DNA of 64,000 nt from Klebsormidium nitens. Its lineage: Eukaryota > Plantae > Klebsormidiophyceae. The notes beneath the pieces were generated by a model. It was not told where the DNA came from and ran no database searches. It worked only from the letters and a program-made list of their open reading frames with translations. The stretch is from contig DF237261.1 in the NCBI GenBank assembly GCA_000708835.1, forward strand, positions 1 to 64,000, read 5' to 3'. A program made the position numbers and the translations under genes. Below, piece by piece: positions 1 through 16,773 of this stretch (position 1 is its first letter; every line of letters starts with the position of its first letter).

Positions 1-781
1 TCACTAAAGCCGATCCATCCGGGATATTACGCCGTCTTGCAGACAGCCACACAGTGCGTCGTTAAGACGTGACCACTGTCGTTTCGCTAACTCGCGGTTA
101 ACGAAACCCTGTCGAGAACGAGGTTAGGCTTAACCAGTCGTAATCGTTACACTAACGTGAGTGTATGTATGACGGCCTCCACAACAGACTGCAAGCACTT
201 AGGCTATTTAACTTGGTCTCCGATATGAGGCCTTGACGCAGACCACTCAGAACACTCGATTCTGAGCATTCTGTTTTATATTGTTGCAGAGGCGGCAAGC
301 AAGGAGTATGCTGAAGAAACATTAGTTTTCTGTTGTCATGGCCATCGCAGACATGAGTAGCTCAGCTTGGATGGAGTATCGAGAAAGGAGATTGCTTGAG
401 CAGAATGGACGCAGCGCTGAAAATCGGGTGAGACATCATGGATTTCGTCCATCTTACTGGTTCAATACCCTATGGTTTTGGATACAGAGTTCACAATCAA
501 CCCATCTGCTTTAATCTTACCAGAATTGATGCACGTTTCTGTTAGGTTTTCAAATAAATACAATATTTAAAGGAAGTCCAAGTGCCTCATCAAGTGCACC
601 AGACATACTCTATTCTTAGACATCTCGCTTCTTACACACCTTTTCAAGTTCCTGTTACATCTCTGGACACAACCACAATCTTCAGATCCACTCCCTATGC
701 ACTCCAGTTCAGATTTATCAAACGCATTCATAAACTTAATCTCGACACCCATGACAAATCAGTGACCAGCCCCTGTTATGA

Positions 782-1279
782 TCACTCAACCAGATTGAAT
801 GTCCCTATGATTTGGTCCATCAAGGCAAATCCAGTCATACCCTCCGCTGCACCCTCTATCTGCTCATTCGTGTACGCCTTGACAGAGGTATTACGCCCGT
901 TCACTTCAATCATCTTGGTTCCCGGTTCCTTCCTTGCGGTCTCTCTGTACAGTGCAGCCAAGGCAATGCCGGGCTGAACAAGACGCTTGCTATTTGCAAT
1001 AACATTCTTCTCGAGCTGGAGGTATTCTGACAGCGTATACTCCTTCAAGCCACTGCCCTCGATACCCAGAAATGGACCGTTCTGTAGAGCCCCACGGACA
1101 TCTGCTTGATAAGCTTGTAGATCGGTGATTGTAAAGGCTTGCAACGTCTCCAACTTCTGCCGCCAGGTGTCCGCCACCTTCATACGTTTGACAGGAGCCT
1201 CTAAGGCCATTCTCTCCTGCTCCACTTGTAGTTTCTTCTCCTCCAGGTCCAGCTTTCGAATCTCAAGTTGATAGACCAT
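782..1279 (-). CDS. Small virus/phage-like protein (165 aa from ATG 1279): coiled coil plus a C-terminal domain resembling antirepressor-type DNA-binding proteins
   Basis: Real part of ORF 782..1693. It reads MVYQLEIRKLDLEEKKLQVEQE (coiled coil) ... GIALAALYRETARKEPGTKMIEVNGRNTSVKAYT, recalling from memory the G-x-L-x-x-x-Y-x(4)-EP-x(5)-V-NG-x(4)-V-x-AY tail of phage/NCLDV Bro-N/KilA-type proteins. The upstream part of the track ORF is just the 147-bp repeat. An AG immediately precedes the ATG, so an upstream exon is possible. Confidence 0.55.
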   Translation of the reverse strand: MVYQLEIRKLDLEEKKLQVEQERMALEAPVKRMKVADTWRQKLETLQAFTITDLQAYQADVRGALQNGPFLGIEGSGLKEYTLSEYLQLEKNVIANSKRLVQPGIALAALYRETARKEPGTKMIEVNGRNTSVKAYTNEQIEGAAEGMTGFALMDQIIGTFNLVE

Positions 1280-1387
1280 CTGGCAGTTGGCTCTGCCCGA
1301 ACTTCCTGCTCTACAGTCCTCTGTCCAAGCAGGAAATGTTCCTGAGCCGTTCCAGCGATGGCAGCATGCCTCTGCTCGAGGTGACGG

Positions 1388-1652
1388 GCCACAGAAAAAA
1401 TAGCTTCCGAGATACAAGAAGGGTATAAGTTTAGGGAAGTTATTTTTTCTTCGACTTAAAACGCCAGTCAAAGCGTCGCATGGGCCATGCCCTGCCACGT
1501 GTCTCTCTCCCAACATGAGCACCCAGAGCCACAAGCCACAGAAAAAATAGCTTCCGAGATACAAGAAGGGTATAAGTTTAGGAAAGTTATTTTTTATTCG
1601 ACTCAAAACACCATTCAAAGCGTTGCACGGGGCATGCCCTGCCACGTGTCTC
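1388..1652 (+). repeat. Two ~120-bp direct repeats (period 147) between the divergent genes
   Basis: GCCACAGAAAAAATAGCTTCCGAGATACAAGAAGGGTATAAGTTTAG...CATGCCCTGCCACGTGTCTC starts at 1388 and again at 1535. Confidence 0.95.
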
Positions 1653-4600
1653 CTGTCGCCAGAGACGCGCGCTCCTCGTTTGCCACGTGGCACCCTTTCA
1701 TTGGTTGCTGTGTTCTGCAGGGCCGGACGTTTCAGATCACTCCCGGCGCAGGTGCCGTCGAGCGGAGGAGAGGGGTCAAGCGCAAGAGCACAAATGATGA
1801 CTGCGCAGCAGGCGGGAGCTCTGGCAGCGACGCGAACTCCGACAAAAGAGGCGAGAACGTCCAGCTCTCAGACAACGGGTCGGTCCGGACCGAGGAGGTC
1901 GAGTCGGCCGGCTCGCTCCGGGAGTTTGTCGACGACGGGAGCGTGCGGGGCGGAGAAGGGGCCATCGCCCATGCCGCAATCGAACAAGAGCGCGTGGCAG
2001 CTTCGGCGGACGCCCGCGTGCCTCAGGTGAGCCCATGGAATCGCCCAGGGACGCCCGACATCAAACCTCCGAGCTCGCATCCGCCCCTCGATGGCCCCAC
2101 CCATGCCGCCCCGAATGACTGAGAGGACTGAGACCTCCAAGAGAGTCTTGTGCAAAAGAGTCCCAAAAATGGCTTTCCGCATGCCCGCCCATGCCGCCTG
2201 GGATTTGGGCCGCCTCCGAAATTGACACGGGAAATTTTCGCTTCCGAGTATTATAAGAAGTACATATATTAGAGAAGTTTTTTTTTTTTTCCCGCTAGTA
2301 GATCCGCGTATGAGAAATTTTTGGCGGATGAGCAGTCGTTGATCGCGTGACACGTGTCCCCTCCTTCAACACCGCCCGGGATCCGGGCCGCCTCCGAAAT
2401 TGACACGGGAAATTTTCTCTTCCGAGTAATATAAAAAGTATATATATTAGAGATTTTTTTTCCCGCTAGTCGATTCGCGTATGGAAAAGTTGGTTGATGA
2501 GCAGCCAATAATCTCGTGACATGTGTCCCCAGACCGCCTGGGATCTCCGAGTGTGCTCTCTTCCTGCCACGTGTGTCACGCTCATCGGTTGCCCTCCCTT
2601 CAGGGTCGGGCCTCCGACGGCAGTCTATCTCCGGACGAGCACGGTGACAGCGTTCAGCCCGCCGACAACGAGGAGGAGCGGTCCAGCGAGAGCCAGACCA
2701 CCGGATCTCTGGCCGACTTCAGACACGATGCCGGCACCCCCCGGGAAGATGCGACTTTCTACGCGGCCTTTGAGAACGAGCGTGCGGCAGCACTCGACTC
2801 CTGCGATCCGTTGCCTCAAGTGAGACCGCCCTCCCTCTCCTCTCTGCGTCATCACGAGCGGCCCGGAAAAGATCTTCGGGGTCTGCTGACGTGGCACAGC
2901 CACGGCTCCCTCCTCAAGCACCCGACCGGTCACTCGATGAGGCCAGCTCGATCTCGCGTCCACTTCTGCATCAGACTGAGCAACCTCTCGTAACTCGCAG
3001 CACCATCCGCTGGACGAGGACTTTCCTGGGCCAGCTCTGGTTCTCCAAGAAGGAGGCGGCCGTTGGGCACCAGCGGGCGAACCGACACGCGCTGATCGCC
3101 TCCTGCGACCTGAGTGCATCTGGGGGTTACAAGAAGTTCTCGAGCTTCGTCAACGCCGGTGCCTTCGTGAGCTATCTGAAAAAGCTGCGGGCCGAAGGAG
3201 TGGACCTGAACCTTTACGAGTGCGCCGACGCGGAAACCGCCTCGAAATTCTACGTGGACGTCGACTACGCGACAGCAGAGCGGAGCGACGAGGACTTCCG
3301 GGAACGATTCGAGCACTGCGAGATCGTGCTGCGTGGCTTCCTCGAGCGGGTCCTCCTGGTCCCTCCCAAAGCAATTACCTTCCAAGTAGCCACCGCCCAC
3401 GGGAAGCGCAAGGACGGGGGTTACAAGTACAGCGCCCACGTCTGTCGGCAGGGATTCTATCTGAAGGACTCGTCCGTCCGGAGGGAACTGAAACGAGCCG
3501 TGATCTTCTTCCTCGAAAAGCCTCCCCAGCAGCTGCGGCGGAACTGCGAGTTTCTGTTCTTTCGAGAGTTCAAGGAAGGGGTCTCCATCGAGAAGTGCCT
3601 CATCGACACTGCCGTGTACAGCTCGTTCCAGAACTGGCGCACCCTCTATTCGGAGAAGAAGGGGTCAGGCCGCCCTCTCGAGCCAGCGGTGGGGAGCTCT
3701 CCCGACATCGCAGACCATCTGATCGGCTTCCACGACCCGGCAGTCAGAGCGGCGGCTCTGGAACTCGACGGCGACTTGCTGGCGACTTACAACCAGCGGG
3801 CGGAACCTCTGCCGTGCGTCTCCCGGGGGCCCGCGAGGAACCCAGTACGGGGGCTCAGGGAGACTTTTGTGGAGCGGGGTGGCGCGGTATACCCTCTCAC
3901 CGGCGTGGAGAAAGACCGACTGCTGCGGCGATACCAGAAGGACCATCCGGGCGCGTGGATCCTGCGGGCGGAAGCCATGGGCGAAGGCGTCTTCACCGTG
4001 CACTTCGGTGTCCCGGCCCCCTACTGCTGGATAGCGGGGCGGGCGCACTCGTCACCCGGGAACGCGTGCGGGTACTTGGTGTACCGCAGAAACACGCCCT
4101 CCAAAGCCTTCTACCGGTGCCATTCGAGGTCCTGCAGGTGAGGCACATCAGTATACCGCTTTTTAAGTCGCAGCACAGTCCGGTGCAAAGCGAAAAACAC
4201 GAATGGGGTCAGCTGAGAGCGCAGGTTCTATTCAGTCGGTGGGGTATTCTCTCGTGATCGCTGGCCTCGTGAACGCATCGTCCTATCTCAGTCGAATCCT
4301 CTGACCTCCGGTGTCGTTCCATCTCGTAGCGGAGTGGCGGTCGACGGGAGCGGCAGGCGTCTGCAACGAGTCCTGCAGCTGGATGCGGAGTGCATCGAAT
4401 CCTGGACCAGCGACTACGAGATTGTTGGCCGTATGCGAGGGTACCCCATCCCTAACCTCCGGCGCGACGCGGAGCCTCAGACGACTCTGGTGATGGCCAA
4501 CATGGGCGCCGGGAAGTCCAAGGAGCTCTTCCACGGGCTCTTGCCTCGCTTACCCTCGGAAGCCTCCGTCTGTCTGATCGCGCCGAACATCGCGTTGGCC

Positions 4601-6627
4601 AGGAAGTACCACGAGGAGACCAGGAAGGAGGGTCTGGACTACGTCTGCTACCTGGACGAGAACGGGGGCAAGATTACCGCGCGGCGGGTGGTGGTCTGCA
4701 TCAACTCGATAGCCAGGGTGCTGCCGCGTTTCGATGTGGTGGTCATGGACGAGGTTAACTTCACCCTGACCAACATGGCCTCCACCGTCATGAAGGACAA
4801 GAAGCTAGTCTTCTTGGCTCTGGAGGGAATAGTGGCGGGGGCGAAGGCGGCGTTCCTGAGCGACGCCCATCTGAACTGCCCCCGTGTGGTGGAGTGGATC
4901 CAGACCTTGCGGCACGCGAGCCGCTTCTATACCATCCGCAACCGTGGCGTCTGGCCTTCGAAGCGGAAGGCATTCATCTCGCCGATGCCCGGACCGCTCG
5001 TGGGCAGAGGGCAGCCCAAGGCGACGTTCTCTCTGGTGGTGGAGGGTATCCTGGACCTCGTCGCATCCGGAAAGACCGTCATGGTAAGTGCACTCCGCCT
5101 TCTTCCGAGACGGAGCACGTGCCCTCCGATTTATCTCCGTTCGAGATTCAGTGCGCCTCTGAAAAATGACACGGGAAAATTCCGCTTCAGGGTATTATGA
5201 CACGTATATGTATCAGAGAACATATCTTTTCCCACCCGTGAATGTGCGAGTGTGACTTTTCACCATACCAGGCCCCCCTTATTACGCCCAGGAACAGAAC
5301 CACCCCTTAAGAGCGACATGGTTGTTTTGTGCCCCCTTTGCCCCGGCATACCGTTCGAAAATCTGTGCACCTCTCGTGCAACGACACGGGAAAATTTCGA
5401 TGATTTTGTTCCCGCCTGTAAACTTGCGAGTGTGATGTTTCCGGCCTTCTGTCCCCCCTCCATTCCGCCCGGGATCTGAACCCACCTCCTGATTCGACAG
5501 GGTTGGTTTTATCGTCTCCTTCTTCGCCTCATACCGCCCCGAATCCAGGGTACCTCTGAAAACGACATGGGGAAATTTCGCTTCCGATAGTATTGTAAAA
5601 TGTATATACATTAGAGAANNNNNNNNNNNNNNNNNNNNNNNNNNNNNNNNNNNNNNNNNNNNNNNNNNNNNNNNNNNNNNNNNNNNNNNNNNNNNNNNNN
5701 NNNNNNNNNNNNNNNNNNNNNNNNNNNNNNNNNNNNNNNNNNNNNNNNNNNNNNNNNNNNNNNNNNNNNNNNNNNNNNNNNNNNNNNNNNNNNNNNNNNN
5801 NNNNNNNNNNNNNNNNNNNNNNNNNNNNNNNNNNNNNNNNNNNNNNNNNNNNNNNNNNNNNNNNNNNNNNNNNNNNNNNNNNNNNNNNNNNNNNNNNNNN
5901 NNNNNNNNNNNNNNNNNNNNNNNNNNNNNNCTCTCCATTCCGCCCTAGATCAGAAGCATTGCGAGTCTGATCCTTTTGGCCTTCCTCTCTTTCCCTTCCG
6001 TCTCACAGGTTCCCGCCACGAGCAAAACAGTCGTAGAGCTTCTGGAGACGGCATTCGAGGCTCGTTTTCTGGAGAAGAAGCTCATCGCTTTCCACGGTGA
6101 CAAGAGAGAGGAGTCCGACAAGATGCTCCTGCAGCGCGCGATCTCCAATCCGGACGAATCGCTGAGTCATCGCGGACTGCCTCGCGTTCACCGTGCCCAC
6201 TATCGGTCCCGGGGTCTCGATCGAGAAGAAGGGGAGTTACGACCTGGTGGTCGGGGTGGCCGTAAACTCCGACAACCACCCCGACGCCCAAGTCCTGATG
6301 CAGCAGATACAGAGGGCGAGAGATGCCGGGGACATACAGATCTTCTACAGCGAACTTCCGAGCCGTCGGAGGGTCCCTCACCCGGATACCAAGGAAGAGG
6401 TGTTCCGGATGCTGGAGAGTAGCGACCGGGAGCTCGCCGACCTGATGCAAGGGGTCTCGGTAGATCATGTGGACATGCTGCGGGGTGCTCCGGGAGAGCG
6501 TGCCATCTACGACCGCAGCTCCGCAACCTGCAACCTGTACGCCTGGGAGCTCGACAAACCCTGTTGCATCTGGGAGCTCAACAACCCCTGTTGCGCCTGG
6601 GAGCTCAAACCTTTGCATTTGCCCTGA
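1634..6627 (+). CDS. Spliced AEP (PrimPol/UL52-type) primase + C-H-C-C Zn finger + UL9-like origin-binding SF2 helicase fusion; frameshift near 6171, short or truncated C-terminus
   Basis: Exons 1721-2026, 2604-2819, 2975-4137, 4330-5083, 6009-6627; all four GT-AG introns keep the frame (phases 0,0,2,0). AEP motifs: KFYVDVDY, KYSAHV, IDTAVYSSFQNWRTLYSEK. Zn finger: YCWIAGRAHSS...YRCHSRSC. Helicase motifs: ANMGAGKS (Walker A), VVCINSI, VVMDEV (Walker B), PTIGPGVS, QQIQRAR. The start is uncertain: in-frame ATG at 1634, or an acceptor at 1720. Confidence 0.85.
2194..2550 (+). repeat. Tandem ~178-bp repeats in primase intron 1
   Basis: CCGCC(T/C)GGGAT..GGGCCGCCTCCGAAATTGACACGGGAAATTTTC(G/T)CTTCCGAGTA..ATAA.AAGTA.ATATATTAGAGA-polyT-CCCGCTAGT at 2194 and 2372, with a partial third copy at ~2534. 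Confidence 0.95.
5165..5618 (+). repeat. Diverged copies of the same repeat family in helicase intron 4
   Basis: GACACGGGAAAATTCCGCTTC...TATGTATCAGAGAA (~5168), GACACGGGAAAATTTCG (~5383), GACATGGGGAAATTTCGCTTCCGA...TATATACATTAGAGAA (~5564). TGCGAGTGTGA occurs twice, and CCGCCCGGGATC is at ~5465. Confidence 0.85.
5619..5930. other. Assembly gap (312 N)
   Basis: Run of N; it begins exactly where other repeat copies enter a poly-T tract. Confidence 1.
6541..6610 (+). repeat. 27-bp tandem repeat (about 2.6 copies) at the end of the helicase ORF
   Basis: GCCTGGGAGCTCGACAAACCCTGTTGC / ATCTGGGAGCTCAACAACCCCTGTTGC / GCCTGGGAGCTCAAACC. Confidence 0.9.
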
Positions 6628-8821
6628 CAACGTGACTGCTAGCTGGACTAAGTTGGGCATGAGGTTTCCTACCCAAGTCATTGGTATGTACCGAGGGGAC
6701 TCACTCAACGTGCCCAGCAGTAACTTTCCGAGTGAATCTAGGGCACGTTCAGTGGTCCCGGTCTCTGTTCGTTATGCCACGTGGCAGGTGCGCTCCGGAT
6801 GTTCATGGAGGGGTCAGACTGGGGTCAATGCCCGGCGGGTCGAGTCGGGTTCGAGGTTCCGCCGTTTGCGGCGCGAGTGAATTCGTAGCGGGTTTTGATT
6901 TAACCGAGGTTTAAACTGGTCCGGAATTCGGTTCGCGAGTGTGTTCCGAGTCGAATTTTATTCTGGCGGGGGGGTCCATCGGACGGTGGATGTTATTCCG
7001 GAGGCTTCCCTCGGGCCGTCAGATAACTCCGATGTCACCAGTCCCTAATAGTCGGAATCATACGGTATACCTTGGTCGTCCGGTATCAACTTTCAAGTTT
7101 CAAGCATCATAGGCTTGGGTGGTTTAGCTTGCTAGGCAGTTATCCGTGACCAGGCTTGGTTTCCGGACCTGCTTCTGAGCCTGGTTTGCCAAACATGCTC
7201 TTGAGCATCTTCTTCGATACCGTCCGATAAGCTGTTTTGTTTAGATTCACGGTCCATGCAGGATATCATGTGTAACCTCCTCTGAACAATGTGTCTTTTT
7301 GACGCAAAACCCAAACTAGCAAACCCAGTCACTTTCCTGAATATATTCGACAAAATTGTATTATATTGCCAATGGACATCTCGGACAACATTTGTTTTGA
7401 TTTCACGAAAACCCGGCCCAGTACGGCAATGGCACAGAAACGCTTGGACACTCTGCAAGTCAATCATTCTCGGCGCGTTTCTCGGAGGCGCTCAGAACCG
7501 CGTCACTGTAACCCGCGGTTCTGCTTGGCAAACGTCATCTGATACGACGTCAGACTCAGAATCTCGGGCCGGATATATCCTGTCAAACTCGGCGCAAAGG
7601 AGCCAAGTCGGAAAGGAGCAAGCTACTTAGCTGCTGTCTGCCATGCCTGAGTCCAAAAGATGATGACATCAGGCAAATTTTGCCGTCAACTGTCATAAGA
7701 GCGTTGGGAATGCGTCGGAGCGTTACGGGCGTTTCAACTCTCCGTTTGTTCGTACACTAGGAACATCAGGAAGCCGTGGAAAAGGTTTCCTGCTTATGCC
7801 CAGTCGATTACATTGTCATTTATGTATCAGAAATATGGTCGACTTTTGAAACCCACACTGGAGCAACTGATCATGGTGGCTCTCTTTGACTCCTATATAT
7901 TTTCCGTCTAGTGGGCATTTCGTCTGTCGTTCTGATTGGCTAAGGTTTGGAGGTTAGTGCTCACGCTGGGAGTAGGTGTTAGTCGTGAGGATTGTGTGCG
8001 CAGGCAAAGAAAAACAAATGTCAGCAGTGCGCTGAGCGGGCGCCAAATAAATTTCACAGAGGTCTAAAGAGTTTTCACAGACTTTCCACCACCACCACCA
8101 ATCAGAACGGTTGCTTCCAGGAGGGTGGGTTGAAGAGGTGACACCAGCAAAAGTCCAAGCCGAGAACGTTTGGCGGGGGCGAATGTTGTTGACATCTACT
8201 TAACGAGTATGTGATGAGTCTCCTTTCAACTTTCTCAAGCTTCTCATTTTGAGCTTGCATTCTCAGACAAAGGTGAAGGAACTCTTCATCAAATTGGGTT
8301 GCGTGAATGCAAGACTCTGTGGCGCCTTGATATATGTTTTTCCCGGTGTTTGACCTTTCGGGGTGCCCACATTGTGCCCCGTTCCTTATGTCCCCAGAAG
8401 GCTGAACCCATCAAAGCCTTAATGCCGCATACTTCTATCCTGATTGGGACAGAAGGCCTAAATTCACAATCGATTAGACGGTGGTACATCAAGTGACTCA
8501 TATGACTGACGTTCTATGTGAAGGTCTCCCTTTCTGTGAGCTTTTCCTGACAGCTGTCTTTCACTTGACAGCTGGCATAGGCTTAAATGTGAATACTCTT
8601 ATATGCCGCCCAGCATCCATGATGCTTGACAGCCCGCCACTACAGAGATAAGATTGAGGCTTGGAAAACTTGCGAGTGCCCTCAATAACCACTACGAGCC
8701 CCTCAGTGTTACACACAGCGTGGCTGTTGAGCAAGTAGATTGAATGCAAACCAGAAGTACTGCCTTGATCACTGGGTATAACCAAAGCAGGGTACGGACC
8801 GTGCGCCCCTTGCCCTTCCAG

Positions 8822-11800
8822 GTGTCTAAGATGCTGCCTCCAGAGCTTCGAAAGAATCTCAGACTTATGCGCGAACTAGACGCGCAGTCCCAAGGTACGT
8901 AATCAGGATAGTTGTTGGTTCCTACAGAAAGATATGGATGGCTGGAACTCACCCACCTGTCTTTCTAAGAGATGTTGGCACACGTCTTCGATGCTGTGTC
9001 ATTGCGGAGGTTACCAACGTAGTGCGCAGTCGAAAAATTTGCATTTTGCCCGTATGGCATACTGTTGGGCTGACTTCGAGGCTAGAAACATTGCACTCAT
9101 GTTTGTGTTGCCTGGTTGCAACTCAATTGTTGCTCATCCTGGTTGCGGATGTGTGTACGGTTTATTCCTGAACCGCCAGGTGATGGGTGCCAACTTTCTG
9201 TTTCCAAACCTGTTTGACAAAGAGTCCACTCACCTGCTAAAGGCGTGTTCATGATTATGCCCCATTTTGAAGACGAACCCCAGTTTAGAAAAGTTGACGG
9301 TTGAAAAGTCGTCATGAAACACTGTCCACTGATCAATGGATACAAGGACTCTGGACGTGGAAAACAAGCTCCACTTTTTTGAATGCTTTCAAATTTCTGA
9401 TGGAAGCTGTTTGCGAAGAAGTACCCATGTTCAGAGAGGAGACAATCGACCTAGCCTGCCCCTCTTGGCTTGCTTCAATGTGCTCCATATTCCATTTCCC
9501 TCGAGAAAAAGAATTTTACAACAATCAGAAGACGAATAAACGGAATCCCCGACAGAAGAATCGCAATCCGTTCTTTCCATCTGACGCAAGAACTCGAAGG
9601 TGTTCTTAAAAATGATTGGATAGTCAGAGAACTTGACAGCAAGAACTTCACATCGTTTCTTTTTTGTAATGTGCTCAGATCTCCAAAGGCGTATAGAAGA
9701 CACGCTCGCGGCACGGATTGCCGAGCTCAGGGAGCGCGCGGAGGGTGGGTCGCCGAAGGAAGGGAGTGTGACCCCCGGAAAAGATGCGCATGGGAAGGAG
9801 CGGCAGATCGAGAAGGATCATGACGCGTGCGCACAGCTGGCGGATAAAAAGGTTGCTCTTGCGGAGCAAACCTATAACCTGGTGAGCGCTTTTTCGGGTT
9901 TGCGGGTAACCCGACCTCGACCCTAAAAAAGTGATCCTAAGAGTTGCCCTGGCGGACCAAACCTATGGTGTGGTGGGCTTCGTACATTGTCAGTCGTTGA
10001 AAAGGGATTCCAAATGGGTCCCAAATGCTTCAGGTTTATGCCTGTTCCCGGTTGCCTTGCTGGCGGAATGAAACCGGGCGTAGATATTCTTTGATCTGGC
10101 GAGCTTCGGGCGCGTCTTTTGCTTGGAATGATGCCCTGAGCTTTGGGATCATGTTTAGCGCCCGAGATAGCACTGACTAACCGTAACGAAGTTCAAATGG
10201 CTGGCATTCTTTGTTTTGGGCGGAATAAGCCGAAAGCGTTTGGCAACATACCAGATGCGCATTAAAGCTTGACTGGCATTGCTGTGCGTAACACGCGAGT
10301 TGAAAGTGGCGCTTTGATCAAAGGCGCAACCATTCACAATTGGACCTTCCGGATCTATTAGCACTTGACGTTGAAAAGTAGACGGCTGTTTCTTGGGGTC
10401 TGATATGTACGTCATCGGAATCTCGAAGTTCGAAACCGATCGGAGGTGACAGTCTGGACAGCTTTAGTAACGCCAGGATTCGAGATAACCACACGATTGA
10501 TCGCCCTCTTTGATAAACCCACTGTATCTCAGCTTGACGTAAAGCTTCGTTCCGTTCCAGATTACTCCTTGCATAATCTCAGCAAACGAGCTTTTTCGTC
10601 TCGCGTCGGTCGAGCCTTGCGGAGCAACGTTCAACCGAACAATTCAGGATCGATCGAAACGGTCGAGCAAAATAGTCCAGCCGCATTTTTTGTTTTTGGG
10701 GTCGTGACAACAAAGATCATCAATCTAAATTTTTCCTTTTCGTGTTTGTATTTCTTTTCGCGGTCGTTCATCTACTAATTCCGAGTAAATACGAGGAAGT
10801 TTTGAAAAGGAGAGCTTTTCTTCCCTCACGTCAAGGTCCACTCCAATCGTCACTCAAATGATTATCGTCGTCAGATCGACAAGCATCTCAGACGTTTGTG
10901 TGCGGTCGTTCCTTTCCTATTTCTCGCCAAAATCATAGCCGCTCCTTCAATGATGAATCAATGCGCTTGCAATCAAGAGTTTCTCAACTGGGTGTTTTCA
11001 GATCGACAAGCACATACGACGGTTAGACACCGACCTCCACCGCTTACAAGCGGAAGTCAAGGCCGAGCGCGCCGCGGCCGCCGCAACTGCCGCCGCCGCA
11101 AACCCCCCCCTTCAGGAGCAGCCGAAAACATCCCCCCGGGACAGCAACGGGGACGCACACACCCCGGGGGGCACTCAGCGGAAAAGGTGCGCGAGCAACG
11201 AGCTCGGAGAACGGGTTCTGCTTTCACGCAAACATTGCAAGTTTTGCTTTTGCGATTTTTTCGAATGGATCGCATTCAGTCTGGTTCGGTGTGATCCAAC
11301 CGGAGCGCTCGTACGTTTCCGATGGACGTTGAGCGTGAAATTATGTTCGCAGGTTGCGTCGGTCCGACCAAGTCTGGTTGGCTCGCAAATGGCATCTATA
11401 CTGAAGGAGACTTCAACTGTCAACCCTCCTCCTTGGCAGCATAAATGACGCGCTTCATGACGTTTAGGCCACCAATTATCGCAGTCATCTGCCCCATTTC
11501 TAACCCACGAAGAATGGCCGTCTGGGGAGGACAATATTCTCTATCTTGCAACACCGGAAGGGAGTCTGACACGTGTGCCTCTGCAGAGGCCACGTGGCAA
11601 CGGGCGCCCCACCAGTGGTTCCGGAGGCGCCAGAGCCTCCCCCTGTGGAGATCAACCTGGAAATAGATCCAAACGAGCCGACCTACTGTTACTGCCAACA
11701 GGTGGGTTCCAGGCAAGCACATATTTCACTTCATGTGGCATCGAATCGTATCCTGGCCCCCTCTCTCAGATACGCATGAAAGCATCGGATGACGGATCGG

Positions 11801-12933
11801 TTTTCTTGGAGGCCTGGCTTTTCTGTAATGCTTAGCATGCTCGCTTGACAATTGACGATTGATACTTGTGCAATGAGAATCGATCTCCGTTTCTTCAGAA
11901 AAGGTGGGTCCGAACAGGCGACTTCTGTCTCGACGTCGTTCGCGTTTGCTGTGCTTCTGGTTACTCTCGTTCTGTCCTTTTCGAAAATTTCTGCGACAGA
12001 GCTTTCCTAAAATTGGACGGATCTCGAGGGTCGCACTTGTTTAGTTACACGGCATATCTGCCATTGCATCGACGTATCTTTGATTGGCAGGCGAGCGTAA
12101 CCTCCACGATTTGAAAGGGGACATTTGTACGTCTTGATATCCCCCTTGAGAGCCTTGTGAGCACCGCTTGGTCGACTCGGCAAAGGAATCCCTTGCCGTG
12201 CCGTAAACGGCCAAAGCGTCTTCTCGCCCTTACCGCCAACGAGTTGCGCCAAGAAGAAGCGTTCCCCATCTGACGACCGTGTTCCGCTGGAAATGGCGCG
12301 GAAGTAGACAGTGGAAACATTAAGGACGGATTGACGACTCAGTCCCTCTTTCCTGAAAGCCAAGTCTCAGGAACGTCGCGGTCTTGCCTTGCAGGTCTCG
12401 TTTGGCGAAATGGTGGGCTGCGATAATAAAGACGTGAGATTCCCGACTCTTTTGACCTTCTCTCCAGCCAGATCTTCTCCGTTTGGCAGGCCTGTCTTGT
12501 AGATTGCTTGTATTGACTCCGCGTTAGTAGGAAACGCGTGCTTAGACTGCTCACCTTATTTCTCCACGATGGAAGGGTGACATCGGTTTGGACATTTTGT
12601 AGTAGCGAACCTGATTTTGAGTCCTATCAAAGGAGCAACTAGAAGTGCGTCTCTTTCCAATGTCCCTCGGGCCTACGTGGTATTCCATCTAGTGACGGGT
12701 TGTGGTGTACGATACACACTACTGCCTCGACTATGCATACGAGACAGATCCTCGAAGCAGACGCTTATGCAAAGCTGTATTGGGCCGGTGATTGTCTCAC
12801 GGTTCGCCTTCCCTTCCAACAGTGCGAAATTCAGTGGTTCCACTTCGATTGCGTGGGACTCACTACCAAGCCCCGGGGCAAGTGGTACTGCCCCGACTGC
12901 ATAACAAAAGTCAAACGGAAGCGGACAAAGTGA
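8822..12933 (+). CDS. ING: ING-family PHD-finger protein (H3K4me3 reader); first exon not located
   Basis: Exons 8822-8894 ([20 protein letters not shown]), 9679-9881 ([15 protein letters not shown]), 11002-11186 (IDKHIRRLD), 11587-11701 ([13 protein letters not shown]), 12395-12433 ([13 protein letters not shown]), 12823-12933 ([26 protein letters not shown]). All splice phases are compatible. Confidence 0.95.
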
Positions 12934-14839
12934 CCGGGGTGCAGGGCGGCGGTCGCCCTGATAGACAGGGTTAAGTTCTGGTTAGGGCAACGTTAGGCCC
13001 AGGTAAGGCTCACGTTAGGCTAAGAGTAAGTAAAGGGATCAGAGGCTTTCGGGAACTTATACGCCTTGGACGGAGGCGCCATAAGTTTCGAAAGACTCAT
13101 CTATGGGCGTTGCCGGGAAGCGTGTTTCTGATGCGGTTTTGCTTTATAGGCAGTACTGTCGGCCATATGCTGATCTGGGTCTGCAAGTCATTGTTCGGCG
13201 GCCGCATCGCTTCATCTGTGAACCAATACATATCTTCACAATGGTGGTTGGTTTGGATCCTAGAGCCTTCTTCGCTTTCCAAATGCTTGAAGTACCTAGC
13301 TACTTAACACTGAGAGATGACTGGCAGAAGAGTGCTCTGCCAGAGGTCGGACGGAACAACGTGTCTGACATTTTTTGCACATGTCATGGCTCACATCAGC
13401 TTGCATAACAAATGTGCATGGGCCCCCACTGGTTTAACAAGCTCTTCAGGGGCTGTCGAAGGCCCACAATAGTACAGTTGCCGTATACACACTAAGTGCA
13501 GGCAAAAGCAGCTGATTCAATACAAGCGCGGGCCTAGCTATAGCAGTGCTGATCGAGAGAATTCGTGTATCAAGGCCTGGAATTGATATGTAGCCAATCT
13601 CAGCATGATCAAATCTCATGACAGTGCCCGATTATAGCTACCAGAACTCGACCTTTTAGTATCCAGGCGCGTTCGCATGCAATTTGATGGTTGGGTTCTT
13701 GTCTGTACGCCAAAAGTTTCAAAGGGATTGCGATCCCATACAGGGTCCAGTAAACCGGCCGAGAACACAAATCTAATTTGTGGTGACCAGCAGAAGCTTC
13801 TTAGCCGTGTCTATGAGTCTAAAGTTGCATGCAAGAAGTAGAACAAAGATTACAGCAGCACACACTGAGCCTTGCAGGTCAATGCAACACCAAGAGCATG
13901 AGACAAGCTTTGTTTGGACGGCCAATGAAGAACGATCAGGGCGAAGGCAAACGAATTCACACAACACAACACAACACACTTTTAAATCATATACAGTTCA
14001 AACAATATCGTTCCCCTTAAGCTTATGGAGGGGGTAACACGCGATGCAACTGTAACTACTCTACAGGCAGTTTGCCGCACTATGCAGGCACTCGTCACGC
14101 ATCTATTTGACTAGCTTCTGGTTCTTAAAAGGCCACCTCACTTTCTTTGTACTAGCTTTTGCTTCTGGGAAGCCATCTTGCTTTCAATATAGCTTGTTAG
14201 CACAACTATTCGCTTCTGGCCCCGGAGCATTTGCAGCCCACTCTGAAACCGCCAGGTCAAACCTGCTCCTGCTAGATACCGGCTAGTGTCTAGTCAGCAC
14301 CACCTCTTTATACCCAAACCTTGCTAGTCATATTGATCACTACACACCAGTCATTAGCTGTCCTACCTTATGCTAATCTATGTCACACACAGTACGGGCC
14401 ACCTTGGAAGGGGCAAAGAATTAGGTACACGAGTATAGACAATCCGCGATTGTGGGACTACTATAGGTCTGCTGAGCTGGTGGGCTTTTCTGGTCTCAGG
14501 GGAGGTGAAGTGGGGCAGCTCTAAACAGTTTGCTTTGCTGCAAAGGAGGGAACAAAGACCATCTCAGGGTTCTGATTGTAGAGAATCTATTCAAGGACAA
14601 ATGACATGATCATCAGAATCAGCTAATTATTATAATAAGCCCAGGGTCACCGCAGCAAGTCATACCACAGGCCAGGCTCGACAAGAAAGTCTGGCTTAAT
14701 GAAGCTTCAGCTCTCATGTATTCAACATGCCAACTTTCTCCCAAGAACGGTTCACAATCACTTCCAGATATAAAACCATGCAACAAAAGCTTCGCAGAAT
14801 TAGGAACTACTTTGGGGGCCTGCATTTTTGTTCACTCAC

Positions 14840-15910
14840 CTAACCTTTGCCCGTCGCGGGCATCGAATTGCATGTCACCCCCGAGCGTTTGACTGCAAAG
14901 CCTTGCAGTGGCTGCTTCTAGAGCAGCATCAAAGGCCTTGGCGCGGTTTTTTGTCCTTGTGAGGAGGTAATGCTTGAAGAAGTCAGAGTTCTCCTTTTCC
15001 AACCCCTTCCAAACTGCACAAGTACGAGGACTAATGTCAACCAGCTCATAATATGCAATTGTTGTCCTGCTTTCTTTCTGACTCTGCTCTCTGACTTACT
15101 GATAACACAGACTACATGATCCAAATACTAGTTGAACGAACTACCCAGACTGAGCTCAGTTGAGTAGGAAAAGCGAAGTCAAACACAGCACCAAACCTAA
15201 CAGCTAACCTTAAGCCAGCCAAATACACAATCAGCCTCAGCTCCAACACATTCAGCACTGCAGGACACTATTGTGAAGGCTGATCGCAACACAACTTTTG
15301 ATCAGCACAGTTGATCAGATCAGGTGCCTACAACCCAAGATCATTACCTGCAATTGTGATTGCTGGTTGGACATGGGCATACTTTGCCAAACTCTTGCAG
15401 CAGCCTTCTAGATCCATGTACATAATCAAGCACTTCTCAATCAGGTGCTGAACCTGCAGAATGCAACAGGGGTAACCCGTGATCAGCTTTTACACAAGTA
15501 AGAGAAACCAGTTCTGCCATCCGGAGTGCTCGTAGAGAGACCAAGGCAATAGGAAAGACTCCACAAGGTAGAATTGCAAAAGACAGAAATGCATGGTGTA
15601 CCAATTCTGCGATCAACTCAAACCCCGCGCAAGCATCTTTCCACAAAATGGACCAAAGATCATTGCCACATAACCCAGCACCAGCTCACGAATGCACCAA
15701 CCACCTAGGAAGTGACGGAACAGTAGAGCAGCTGATTGATCAACATGCTGATTCTTGTCAGGGTGAACACGGACCAAAGAGCTTGAGAACCTTGCAGTTG
15801 CATTGGATGCTTACCATGACGATGTAAGAGTGTGAGACCTGCTTCGTGCCGGCCGCCTTGCCTGAATGCACCATCGCTGACACCTGATTTCGTTTGACAG
15901 GCACCCTCAT
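14840..15910 (-). CDS. Plant-specific A_thal_3526 / TIGR01589-type domain protein; 3' end uncertain
   Basis: Not in the ORF track. Exons 15874(or 15910)-15815 (KQVSHSYIVM), 15453-15348 (VQHLIEKCLIMYMDLEGCCKSLAKYAHVQPAITIA), 15013-14840 (VWKGLEKENSDFFKHY) match the V-Q-x-LIE-x-CL...VW-x-x-LE-x-EN-x-x-FF signature. A possible last exon is 14268-14138. Confidence 0.85.
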
Positions 15911-16773
15911 GATCGCTAACTTAGGGCGTGCGCGTCAAGCGCTTCAACTTGGCTGATCTAAACTGGACTTCCTGATCCGACTCCAAAAGCGCTCCCCGTC
16001 TACAAAATGAACCTGATCAAGACCGCCTCACGACTTTGTCCAAGAAGTAAGGCCAACTTCACTTGTCAAACCCTCAAACACCAGGATCGTCTTCGTCTCC
16101 GCGCTTTGTACTCCGCCCTCGTGAACGGAACGTGTTCTCCAGCTTCACAGCGGTGCTTGGAGGCGGGGCAGACGGCATCCCTTGCGCTCCAGCAGGGCTC
16201 CAGCTTCCGAGCTCATGCAGGCGTGTGTCCTCCCTGCCTTTTCCCAAAAGTGACGACGCGCAACTTTTGCAGCAGTCGACGTGGGTACACGAGGAGCCAC
16301 GCCGTTTGAGTACACTTTGAGTACTCTGCCTAACCTGGGTACTTCAAGAATCGTCCATCATGCAGATGGCTTGCTTCATTCAAGTTCAAGCTTCAGCTTG
16401 GCGCAGGCAGGGCGTACAGCTGGCAACTCGGTAGTGGGCGGCGCTTCGACTCCCTTTTCCTGGACTGCAGTCGTGATTGAGTGCTATCGCACCCTTATAG
16501 GGTTTCTGAAAGAAGTACCCACAGATGGTACACCAAAATTGGTTGCAACCCTCCGAACCTTTGACCGTACGTGACCAAGCCTACCCGGTGTATTGCCCCG
16601 GTAAGGCTCGCCGGCTCTGTATTGTCGGGGGGGGTGAAAAGATTAATTGGCCGCGCGGTAACATCGCTTTTGTAGCAGGAATTCCTTTCCCGGGCAGCAT
16701 GGTCCCTACCGACGACCCTGATAGCACCGGTGCCATATACTGAGCTCGCGCATGATAACTGAGTAGCTATGCC

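Follow-up and report, generated by a model that had tools for sequence, protein, structure and literature searches.

Fusion of an AEP domain to a UL9-like helicase is already known as a viral gene type. It is described as the NCVOG0024 primase-helicase family (PMC3493329), as a fusion common to the mriyavirus SF2_hel protein, R8 and pF1055L (10.1101/2024.02.29.582850), as a gene of SmDNAV (10.64898/2026.08.29.747986), and among further viral AEP-UL9 primase-helicases (PMC10653895; other literature consulted: PMC11244446, PMC12344493). The literature also gives UL9 an origin role (10.1101/2025.10.31.685793) and describes it, unlike the family studied here, as lacking an active primase (10.64898/2026.08.29.747986). 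For green algae, it is reported that Klebsormidium carries NCLDV core genes (PMC5294986, whose Figure S5 presents gene context in Klebsormidium and may bear on a viral reading of the locus below) and that punuivirus latency genes have spliceosomal introns (10.64898/2026.10.09.758095). The role of the AEP-UL9 fusion in giant viruses is only predicted.

Here, we analyzed 64,000 nt of Klebsormidium nitens contig DF237261.1 (GCA_000708835.1; forward strand, 1-64,000), referred to as the window. Near its left end lies a broken, intron-bearing copy of a giant-virus-type DNA-replication gene that has been multiplied in the K. nitens genome, likely because it is carried by a not-yet-described mobile DNA element. 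What is apparently new is an algal clade of multicopy genes that bear introns, are expressed, and show hints of being mobile, for which we found no earlier description. The literature searched, with few subscription papers and no supplements, yielded nothing on Klebsormidium together with UL9 or on endogenous Polinton-like elements together with a UL9 helicase, and no treatment of the Klebsormidium primase-helicase family or of its transfer from a virus. We compared the window with contigs from 5 of 24 listed sequencing runs (X1, X6, X10, X11, and X12). Since X1 is probably the window's own source, its agreement with the window is not independent.

The window copy is a primase-helicase pseudogene

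The primase-helicase exons are GC-rich, lie within 1721-6543, and are separated by canonical GT-AG introns. The locus comprises the following features:

782..1390, minus strand: left ORF; 3' remnant from a 312-326 aa protein family that lacks the N-terminal third and changes frame near 1280
1388..1720, plus strand: intron, 3' portion only; pair of AT-rich repeats spaced by 147 bp, both containing an imperfect palindrome; splice acceptor at 1720
1721..2026, plus strand: acidic exon of low complexity, whose start is deduced from the acceptor at 1720
2027..2603, plus strand: intron with a GT..AG joint in X6 and X11; two copies of a ~178-bp AT-rich repeat
2604..2819, plus strand: another acidic exon, which likely arose by tandem duplication of the preceding one
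2820-3000, plus strand: GT-AG intron, skipped by RNA-like contigs
3001..4137, plus strand: exon, PrimPol-type AEP and C-H-C-C finger; frameshift near 3022
4138-4329, plus strand: GT-AG intron, skipped by RNA-like contigs
4330..5083, plus strand: exon, RecA domain 1 of the UL9-like SF2 helicase, with Walker A and Walker B
5084..6008, plus strand: intron with further AT-rich repeat copies; 312-N assembly gap at 5619-5930
6009..6543, plus strand: exon, RecA domain 2 with motif VI; frameshift near 6163; cut at 6543
6543..6620, plus strand: 27-bp short tandem repeats at the truncation junction
6650..7051, no strand assigned: multicopy non-coding segment, candidate element terminus; sharp right end at 7051

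An earlier note on this DNA had proposed an AEP domain with DxD and SxH motifs, a UL52-type finger, and a UL9-like SF2 helicase. HMM searches recovered the first and the last of these. Pfam AEP_C962R matches window 2999-4138 (E 3e-5, above the family cut-off), with DxD at ~3251 and SxH at ~3428, and Herpes_ori_bp matches window 4217-5083 (E 7e-13), with Walker A at ~4505, Walker B at ~4739, and motif VI at ~6301; PDB profile and fold searches agree on both the PrimPol-type primase and the helicase. The finger has its C-H-C-C motif (C...H at ~4025) but no UL52 Pfam match at E<=1, so its UL52 label follows from motif spacing. Cellular PrimPol has a DxE motif and no helicase, whereas the window copy has DxD and a fused helicase. 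As in R8/F1055L-type proteins, an N-terminal AEP with intact catalytic motifs is followed C-terminally by a UL9-like SF2 helicase, but the locus lacks the intact reading frame of that type.

The window copy is a pseudogene, frameshifted and doubly truncated. Its five exons, which had been read as one ~1,020-aa protein, yield 7 internal stops when spliced at the predicted sites since the frame slips early in exon 3. The window has 1 extra base near 3022 compared to X6, X10, and X11, and 4 extra bases near 6163 (6163-6165) compared to X6, X10, and X12; around 6165, paralogues align to the window in two frames. Over 2388-4049 and 5931-6736, intervals that span both sites, X1 contigs are identical to the window (0 differences, 0 gaps), so the frameshifts are not assembly slips. 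Homology ends at 6543, where X6, X10, and X12 contigs and the paralogues P0002/P0003 continue, and the C-terminal ~300 residues past this point are missing from the window copy. The UL9-like C-terminal domain is present in the intact paralogue P0176 and deleted here. Another X1 contig joins at 6556, coming from unrelated upstream DNA. On the 5' side, the start had been placed at ATG 1634, which sits inside a 147-bp intron-type repeat. Together with 1653-1720, this repeat shares homology with the 3' terminal part of the following intron; given the acceptor at 1720, the true start and first exons are likely missing. The 4,474-nt X6 contig carries its own indels (1 base at 4444, then 9, 6, and 2 bases further on), so the X6 copy also looks broken; the 1-base loss at 4444 is absent from X10 and X11. 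Thus, the domains, introns, and repeats of the earlier note hold, as do its viral ancestry and domain architecture, while the intact protein does not, and a broken copy cannot make the working protein that its compact initiation module would need at this locus.

Introns are spliced in relatives and carry AT-rich repeats

All four GT-AG introns are skipped by RNA-like contigs of X6 and X11. One X6 contig of 4,474 nt skips all four at the predicted sites, X11 joints are identical, and X10 DNA contigs run through the introns. An X6 contig covers 1757-2022 and then splices to 2600. The "RNA" status of the X6 and X11 contigs is the tool's guess, and the exact GT-AG skipping supports it. No RNA run is on record for the window stretch itself, an absence that has no bearing on expression of the window copy. 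The two acidic exons plus their preceding introns (1721-2819) look like a tandem duplication, and an X10 contig that leaps back 790 bases, from 2762 to 1973, suggests a further copy.

The repeats claimed earlier are real. Aligned to the 3' terminal part of the following intron, the 147-bp pair together with 1653-1720 scores 112 (maximum of 83 in 300 shuffles); its alignments to three other repeat units are weaker (80, 71, and 68 versus shuffled maxima of 77, 85, and 80). The AT content of the intronic repeats far exceeds that of host DNA: repeat units fall to 15-30% GC over 40 bases, a level that <1% of host 40-mers reach. The idea that all repeat units are palindromic was rejected, with 2 of 6 beyond shuffles. 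Window 1-8000 had no Rfam match.

A multicopy Klebsormidium family nests among viral proteins

Annotated gene models give a minimum of 7 paralogues in K. nitens, spread over 6 contigs, a lower bound for the paralogue count that the earlier note called for; they are 38-88% identical to the window exons where the domain is present. The named close homologues are all from Klebsormidium (7 K. nitens models plus K. subtile transcripts), and no named plant or other algal homologue appeared among the 27 proteins whose clusters were checked. As annotated, only 2 of the 7 gene models, P0169 and P0176, contain every domain, a decay pattern usual for mobile DNA, and these two keep the catalytic motifs. 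K. subtile transcripts share ~90% identity with the P0176 subfamily, as would suit a conserved host gene, and this counts against a mobile element. The P0049 (KFL_009210030) model joins the AEP-finger directly to the C-terminal domain without a helicase, which may be an internal deletion or an annotation error.

A phmmer search with P0002 returned 624 clusters at E<=0.001; among the 150 of these that were listed, 95 are >=950 aa and 30 are <450 aa. From the matches listed, we picked by hand 26 short, exon-sized, Klebsormidium-like hits, 21 of which start or stop <=15 bases from window splice sites and none of which covers two exons. Fifteen of the 21 are <50% identical, and relatives down to 36% break at the same sites. 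Since hits end at the window's splice sites, the introns likely predate the paralogue split, as judged from gene-caller ORF ends rather than paralogue DNA. By simple patterns, DxD occurs in 59 and DxE in 6 of the 94 long non-Klebsormidium hits among the matches listed, making DxD the family norm. A profile of the long hits retrieved viral contigs of 234 kb, 548 kb, and 346-376 kb, as well as plasmid-phage RepA genes.

In a FastTree phylogeny of the first helicase domain (140 rows; 29 sequences with too little of the helicase region were left out), 15 Klebsormidium-like rows fell in one clade with a support of 97. A quick IQ-TREE run (LG+G4, 35 chosen rows, 923 columns, with long branches and uneven composition) placed 7 Klebsormidium rows in one clade (SH-aLRT 100) among viral rows, sister to the 1,090-aa protein P0020 (support 98). 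In these trees, both built without cellular SF2 helicases, the family groups with viral homologues as R8/F1055L-type proteins do, and neither tree singles out a donor virus lineage. Altogether, domains, profiles, fold, and trees agree with the viral ancestry, and with the fusion type of large DNA viruses, that had been proposed; rather than the single-copy gene grouping with cellular genes that was named as counterevidence, we find a multicopy family nested among viral proteins.

This placement could also reflect the remains of an intron-bearing, nucleus-replicating DNA virus lineage that repeatedly integrates in Klebsormidium, with the gene as its origin-binding primase-helicase, a reading that we regard as possible but doubtful. 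Outside Klebsormidium, all full-length relatives that have a name are viral, and another orphan gene fragment adjoins the locus. Diverged virus strains would suit the introns common to divergent copies, and infection would account for the low between-strain divergence described below. The literature lends this reading intron-bearing punuivirus latency genes (10.64898/2026.10.09.758095), small nuclear viruses that carry the fusion (10.1101/2024.02.29.582850, 10.64898/2026.08.29.747986), and the NCLDV core genes of Klebsormidium (PMC5294986). However, the copies are dispersed over 6 contigs, 144 window frames contain no hallmark gene, and Ariadnaviruses are reported to be free of intron invasion (10.64898/2026.08.29.747986). 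IMG/VR likewise yielded no close relative of the gene, its sister P0020, the left ORF, or the right end, although the search needs exact short peptides and its blanks are weak. A viral-contig scan with exon 4 gave 2 weak matches (E 4e-4), and metagenome contigs and prokaryote genomes gave nothing close in a scan with the same need for exact short peptides and equally weak blanks.

The same family data bear on domestication, in which an ancient viral gene became a host repriming or repair helicase, was duplicated or captured by unrelated transposons, and died in the window copy. The ancient common introns, the spliced transcripts in X6, X11, and K. subtile, the catalytic motifs kept in P0169 and P0176, and the fact that no mobility enzyme was found all speak for this. 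Yet broken copies occur among the gene models (5 of 7) as well as in the window and X6, between-strain divergence is below that of conserved host genes even with introns included, and the 27 proteins checked offered no named plant or other algal homologue. We consider domestication rather unlikely.

The flanks hold host genes and a candidate element end

The left ORF aligns with P0004 in two frames (79% and 57% identity) and corresponds to the C-terminal two-thirds of its family, cut near 1390. The family has 4 homologues (P0004-P0007) and no Pfam, PHROGs, PDB, or phage assignment, and its C-terminal half found only sub-0.9 clusters without a name in the Atlas; its N-terminal part may resemble giant-virus KilA-N-like proteins. 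P0004 is located on a 35-kb JGI contig. The left ORF and the primase-helicase stand head to head, and both heads are gone. The divergent partner ORF of the earlier note therefore exists as a truncated, frameshifted 3' fragment rather than an intact gene, and the supposed promoter region between the two is remnant sequence.

On the right, contigs at 7011 number 11 in X1, 4 in X10, and 3 in X12, and behind 7051 their loose ends are mixed in X1 and X10 (agreement of 0.68 and 0.53). The 6650-7051 segment has no inverted partner within 1-7200. Helitrons end in a 3' hairpin plus CTRR, whereas here 6960-7060 folds no better than shuffles (z -0.13) and the end reads ATAG; neither the window nor the paralogues have a Pfam match to a Helitron/Replitron HUH Rep. 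An X10 contig over 7147-7621 carries 1,425 upstream bases unlike the window, which hints at an empty site, although intergenic DNA also diverges. The left end of the element is not within the window and is outside it or lost. None of the contigs shown joins an intact gene to the left ORF or to the 6650-7051 repeat, and either may be a separate insertion.

Host genes lie directly right of the locus. Among 144 window frames, a filtered subset of 404 frames >=70 aa, the families are all host (ING/PHD, A_thal_3526, TPP enzyme, amine oxidase, kinase, ion channel, hydrolase, and UBX). None of these frames is a viral hallmark, capsid, integrase, polymerase, transposase, recombinase, or HUH gene, so the capsid, integrase, or recombinase genes for which the earlier note would have searched the flanks are missing from the window frames. 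We found no other viral genes in the 57 kb right of the locus. With four spliced introns and adjacent host genes, the locus does not fit the usual picture of an endogenous virus as an insert that is dense in genes and poor in introns. Among the 144 frames, all from the window and thus to the right of any left arm, there is no NCLDV core-gene cluster. Over the same stretch we found no capsid, packaging ATPase, pPolB, integrase, or HUH gene and no terminal inverted repeats, the features of Polintons, Polinton-like viruses, or mriyaviruses. A host ING gene (ING N-terminal plus PHD exons, window 8000-13000) begins ~1 kb from the candidate element end.

It is very improbable that the locus is a giant-virus fragment that arrived recently and without introns, or that viral DNA contaminated the assembly. 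Its viral ancestry and the GC3 of its exons (0.81-0.84 versus 0.64 in one host gene) would suit such an origin, but the family is present in several organisms, and the four spliced introns and the overlapping X1 contigs that link the locus to a 10-kb host contig largely refute it.

Several other features surround the locus. Window 1-152 is a very high-copy repeat in X1 (summed contig depth of ~179,000 in the first bin) that ends near 152, has varied flanks, folds somewhat better than shuffles (z -2.0), has no Rfam match, and is probably a short transposon or satellite. Window 152-427 is multicopy in X1 and matches the 5' part of a 4,216-nt RNA-like X6 contig plus X11 pieces, which suggests a transcribed repeat or gene fragment left of the locus. 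A motif from upstream of X6 exon 1 was not found in the window. At many single-copy sites in window 7100-16000, X10 has two host-like contigs, which may indicate a mixed culture, a hybrid, or a duplicated genome.

Signs of mobility and a proposed mechanism

Compared to X6, the gene differs at 93 of 2,882 bases (3.2%) and host coding pieces at 53 of 866 (6.1%). Compared to X10, the gene differs at 161 of 3,659 (4.4%), leaving out four short rows (three intron pieces and one likely paralogue), or at 220 of 4,287 (5.1%, by hand) with these rows, and host pieces at 274 of 2,624 (10.4%). This contrast, drawn among the pieces listed with thresholds of 85 versus 82, few host genes, and non-independent sites, hints at recent horizontal spread between strains. 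Hemizygosity or an episome, considered from the half depth of the gene in X1 (9-14 versus 22.8 for host DNA), was rejected, since the X10 ratio is similar and depth is not copy number.

Three paralogues, P0001, P0049, and P0169 (KFL_001380210), have a 2A-like GG(V/I)ESNPGP motif in their long low-complexity N-termini, ahead of the enzyme. This motif has G in the position usually occupied by D, and the 2A-like NPGP motif is absent from the window; both points count against a mobile element. P0169 also has a small Cys/His cluster upstream of the motif. 2A-like peptides are reported from viruses and retrotransposons (10.64898/2026.06.17.732966).

The domains, the breaks, the splicing in relatives, the several divergent paralogues, and their single clade nested among viral proteins are established. 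From these, we tentatively favor a decayed copy of a virus-derived, intron-bearing gene that belongs to a multicopy family in Klebsormidium and likely serves to replicate a capsid-less mobile DNA element. The multicopy family, the one viral-nested clade, the common splice sites, and the low between-strain divergence count for such an element, as do the sharp multicopy end at 7051 with varied flanks and host genes at once behind it, the X10 contig with 1,425 unlike bases, the 2A-like motif in three paralogues, and the AT-rich intronic repeats. Against it stand the lack of a transposase, recombinase, HUH gene, or inverted right-end partner in the window and the mere 2 of 6 repeat units that are palindromic beyond chance; spliced expression is equally expected of host and latent-virus genes. 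The earlier note's undescribed self-replicating mobile DNA is thus kept as a proposal, and the window offers no mobility enzyme for it.

Under the mobile-element proposal, one ancient capture from a large DNA virus would have been followed by intron gain before the paralogues split, repeated copying, and then recent movement between strains. By analogy with UL9 and PrimPol, the protein of an intact copy is predicted to enter the nucleus, where the UL9-like C-terminal domain would bind the element's repeats, the SF2 motor would open the adjacent AT-rich tract, the AEP-zinc finger would lay a primer, and host polymerases would copy the element. Insertion would need either end-joining by the host or a recombinase encoded on the left arm, which is missing, and the window copy could move only in trans. 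It is unlikely, though conceivable, that this amounts to a new class of eukaryotic self-replicating transposon, in which a captured giant-virus primase-helicase works without capsid, polymerase, HUH, or DDE, with AT-rich origins inside introns, some subfamilies relying on 2A-like processing, and a recent horizontal passage from strain to strain.

In this family, a giant-virus replication gene may have given rise to a transposon-like lineage; alternatively, its members may point to an intron-bearing virus of streptophyte algae that has so far escaped notice. Should domestication and dead copies account for all of it, the family would still represent an old virus-to-streptophyte transfer, one that our searches did not find in print. 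An intact paralogue is predicted, by analogy, to have primase, helicase, and origin-binding activity, and since the clade is intron-bearing, expressed, and multicopy in a culturable alga near land plants, its protein should be easy to test.

Comparison with known systems

We compared structures with a model of P0176 (79-sequence alignment, pLDDT 82), since a single-sequence AlphaFold model of P0002 (pLDDT 34) was useless. HSV-1 UL9 is the best PDB match by profile (E 3e-50) and the best fold match (Z 24.4, rmsd 12.8, 506 aligned), with model residues 459-1143 matching UL9 chain 41-812 and reaching into the C-terminal domain; the high rmsd indicates that domain positions differ. By analogy, the family may bind DNA sequence-specifically through this C-terminal domain, which the window copy has lost. 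Human PrimPol matches the AEP fold of model residues 64-331 (Z 20.6, rmsd 3.1, 231 aligned), and cellular PrimPol shares the order of an AEP fold and then a C-H-C-C finger. Compared to cellular PrimPol, the family has DxD, a fused helicase, multiple copies, and a place in a viral clade.

The RepA proteins of linear plasmid-phages (VP882, PhiHAP-1, and relatives) also combine primase, UL9-like helicase, and origin binding in one protein, and their helicase part is homologous (21-23% identity), but they are bacterial and their primase is Toprim rather than AEP. Giant endogenous viral elements, such as the Klebsormidium inserts and punuivirus in Chlamydomonas, likewise place viral genes in a green-algal nuclear genome, and some, like the Klebsormidium family, have spliceosomal introns and are expressed; one study reportedly treats intron-rich mirusviruses. 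In contrast to these elements, the locus has no NCLDV core cluster within the window, and its introns are common to deeply split paralogues.

The NCLDV AEP-UL9 primase-helicases have the same domain order and intact AEP motifs. This set (NCVOG0024) includes mimivirus R8, ASFV pF1055L, the marseillevirus origin-binding helicase, the SF2_hel of SmDNAV and mriyavirus, and Ostreid herpesvirus 1, and among viral models the P0176 model best matches giant-virus origin-binding proteins over their whole length (1,100-1,250 columns). Compared to them, the window copy is broken and without viral neighbors, whereas the Klebsormidium genes as a group are nuclear, spliced, and multicopy, have an acidic low-complexity N-terminus, and are 20-30% identical to their viral counterparts.
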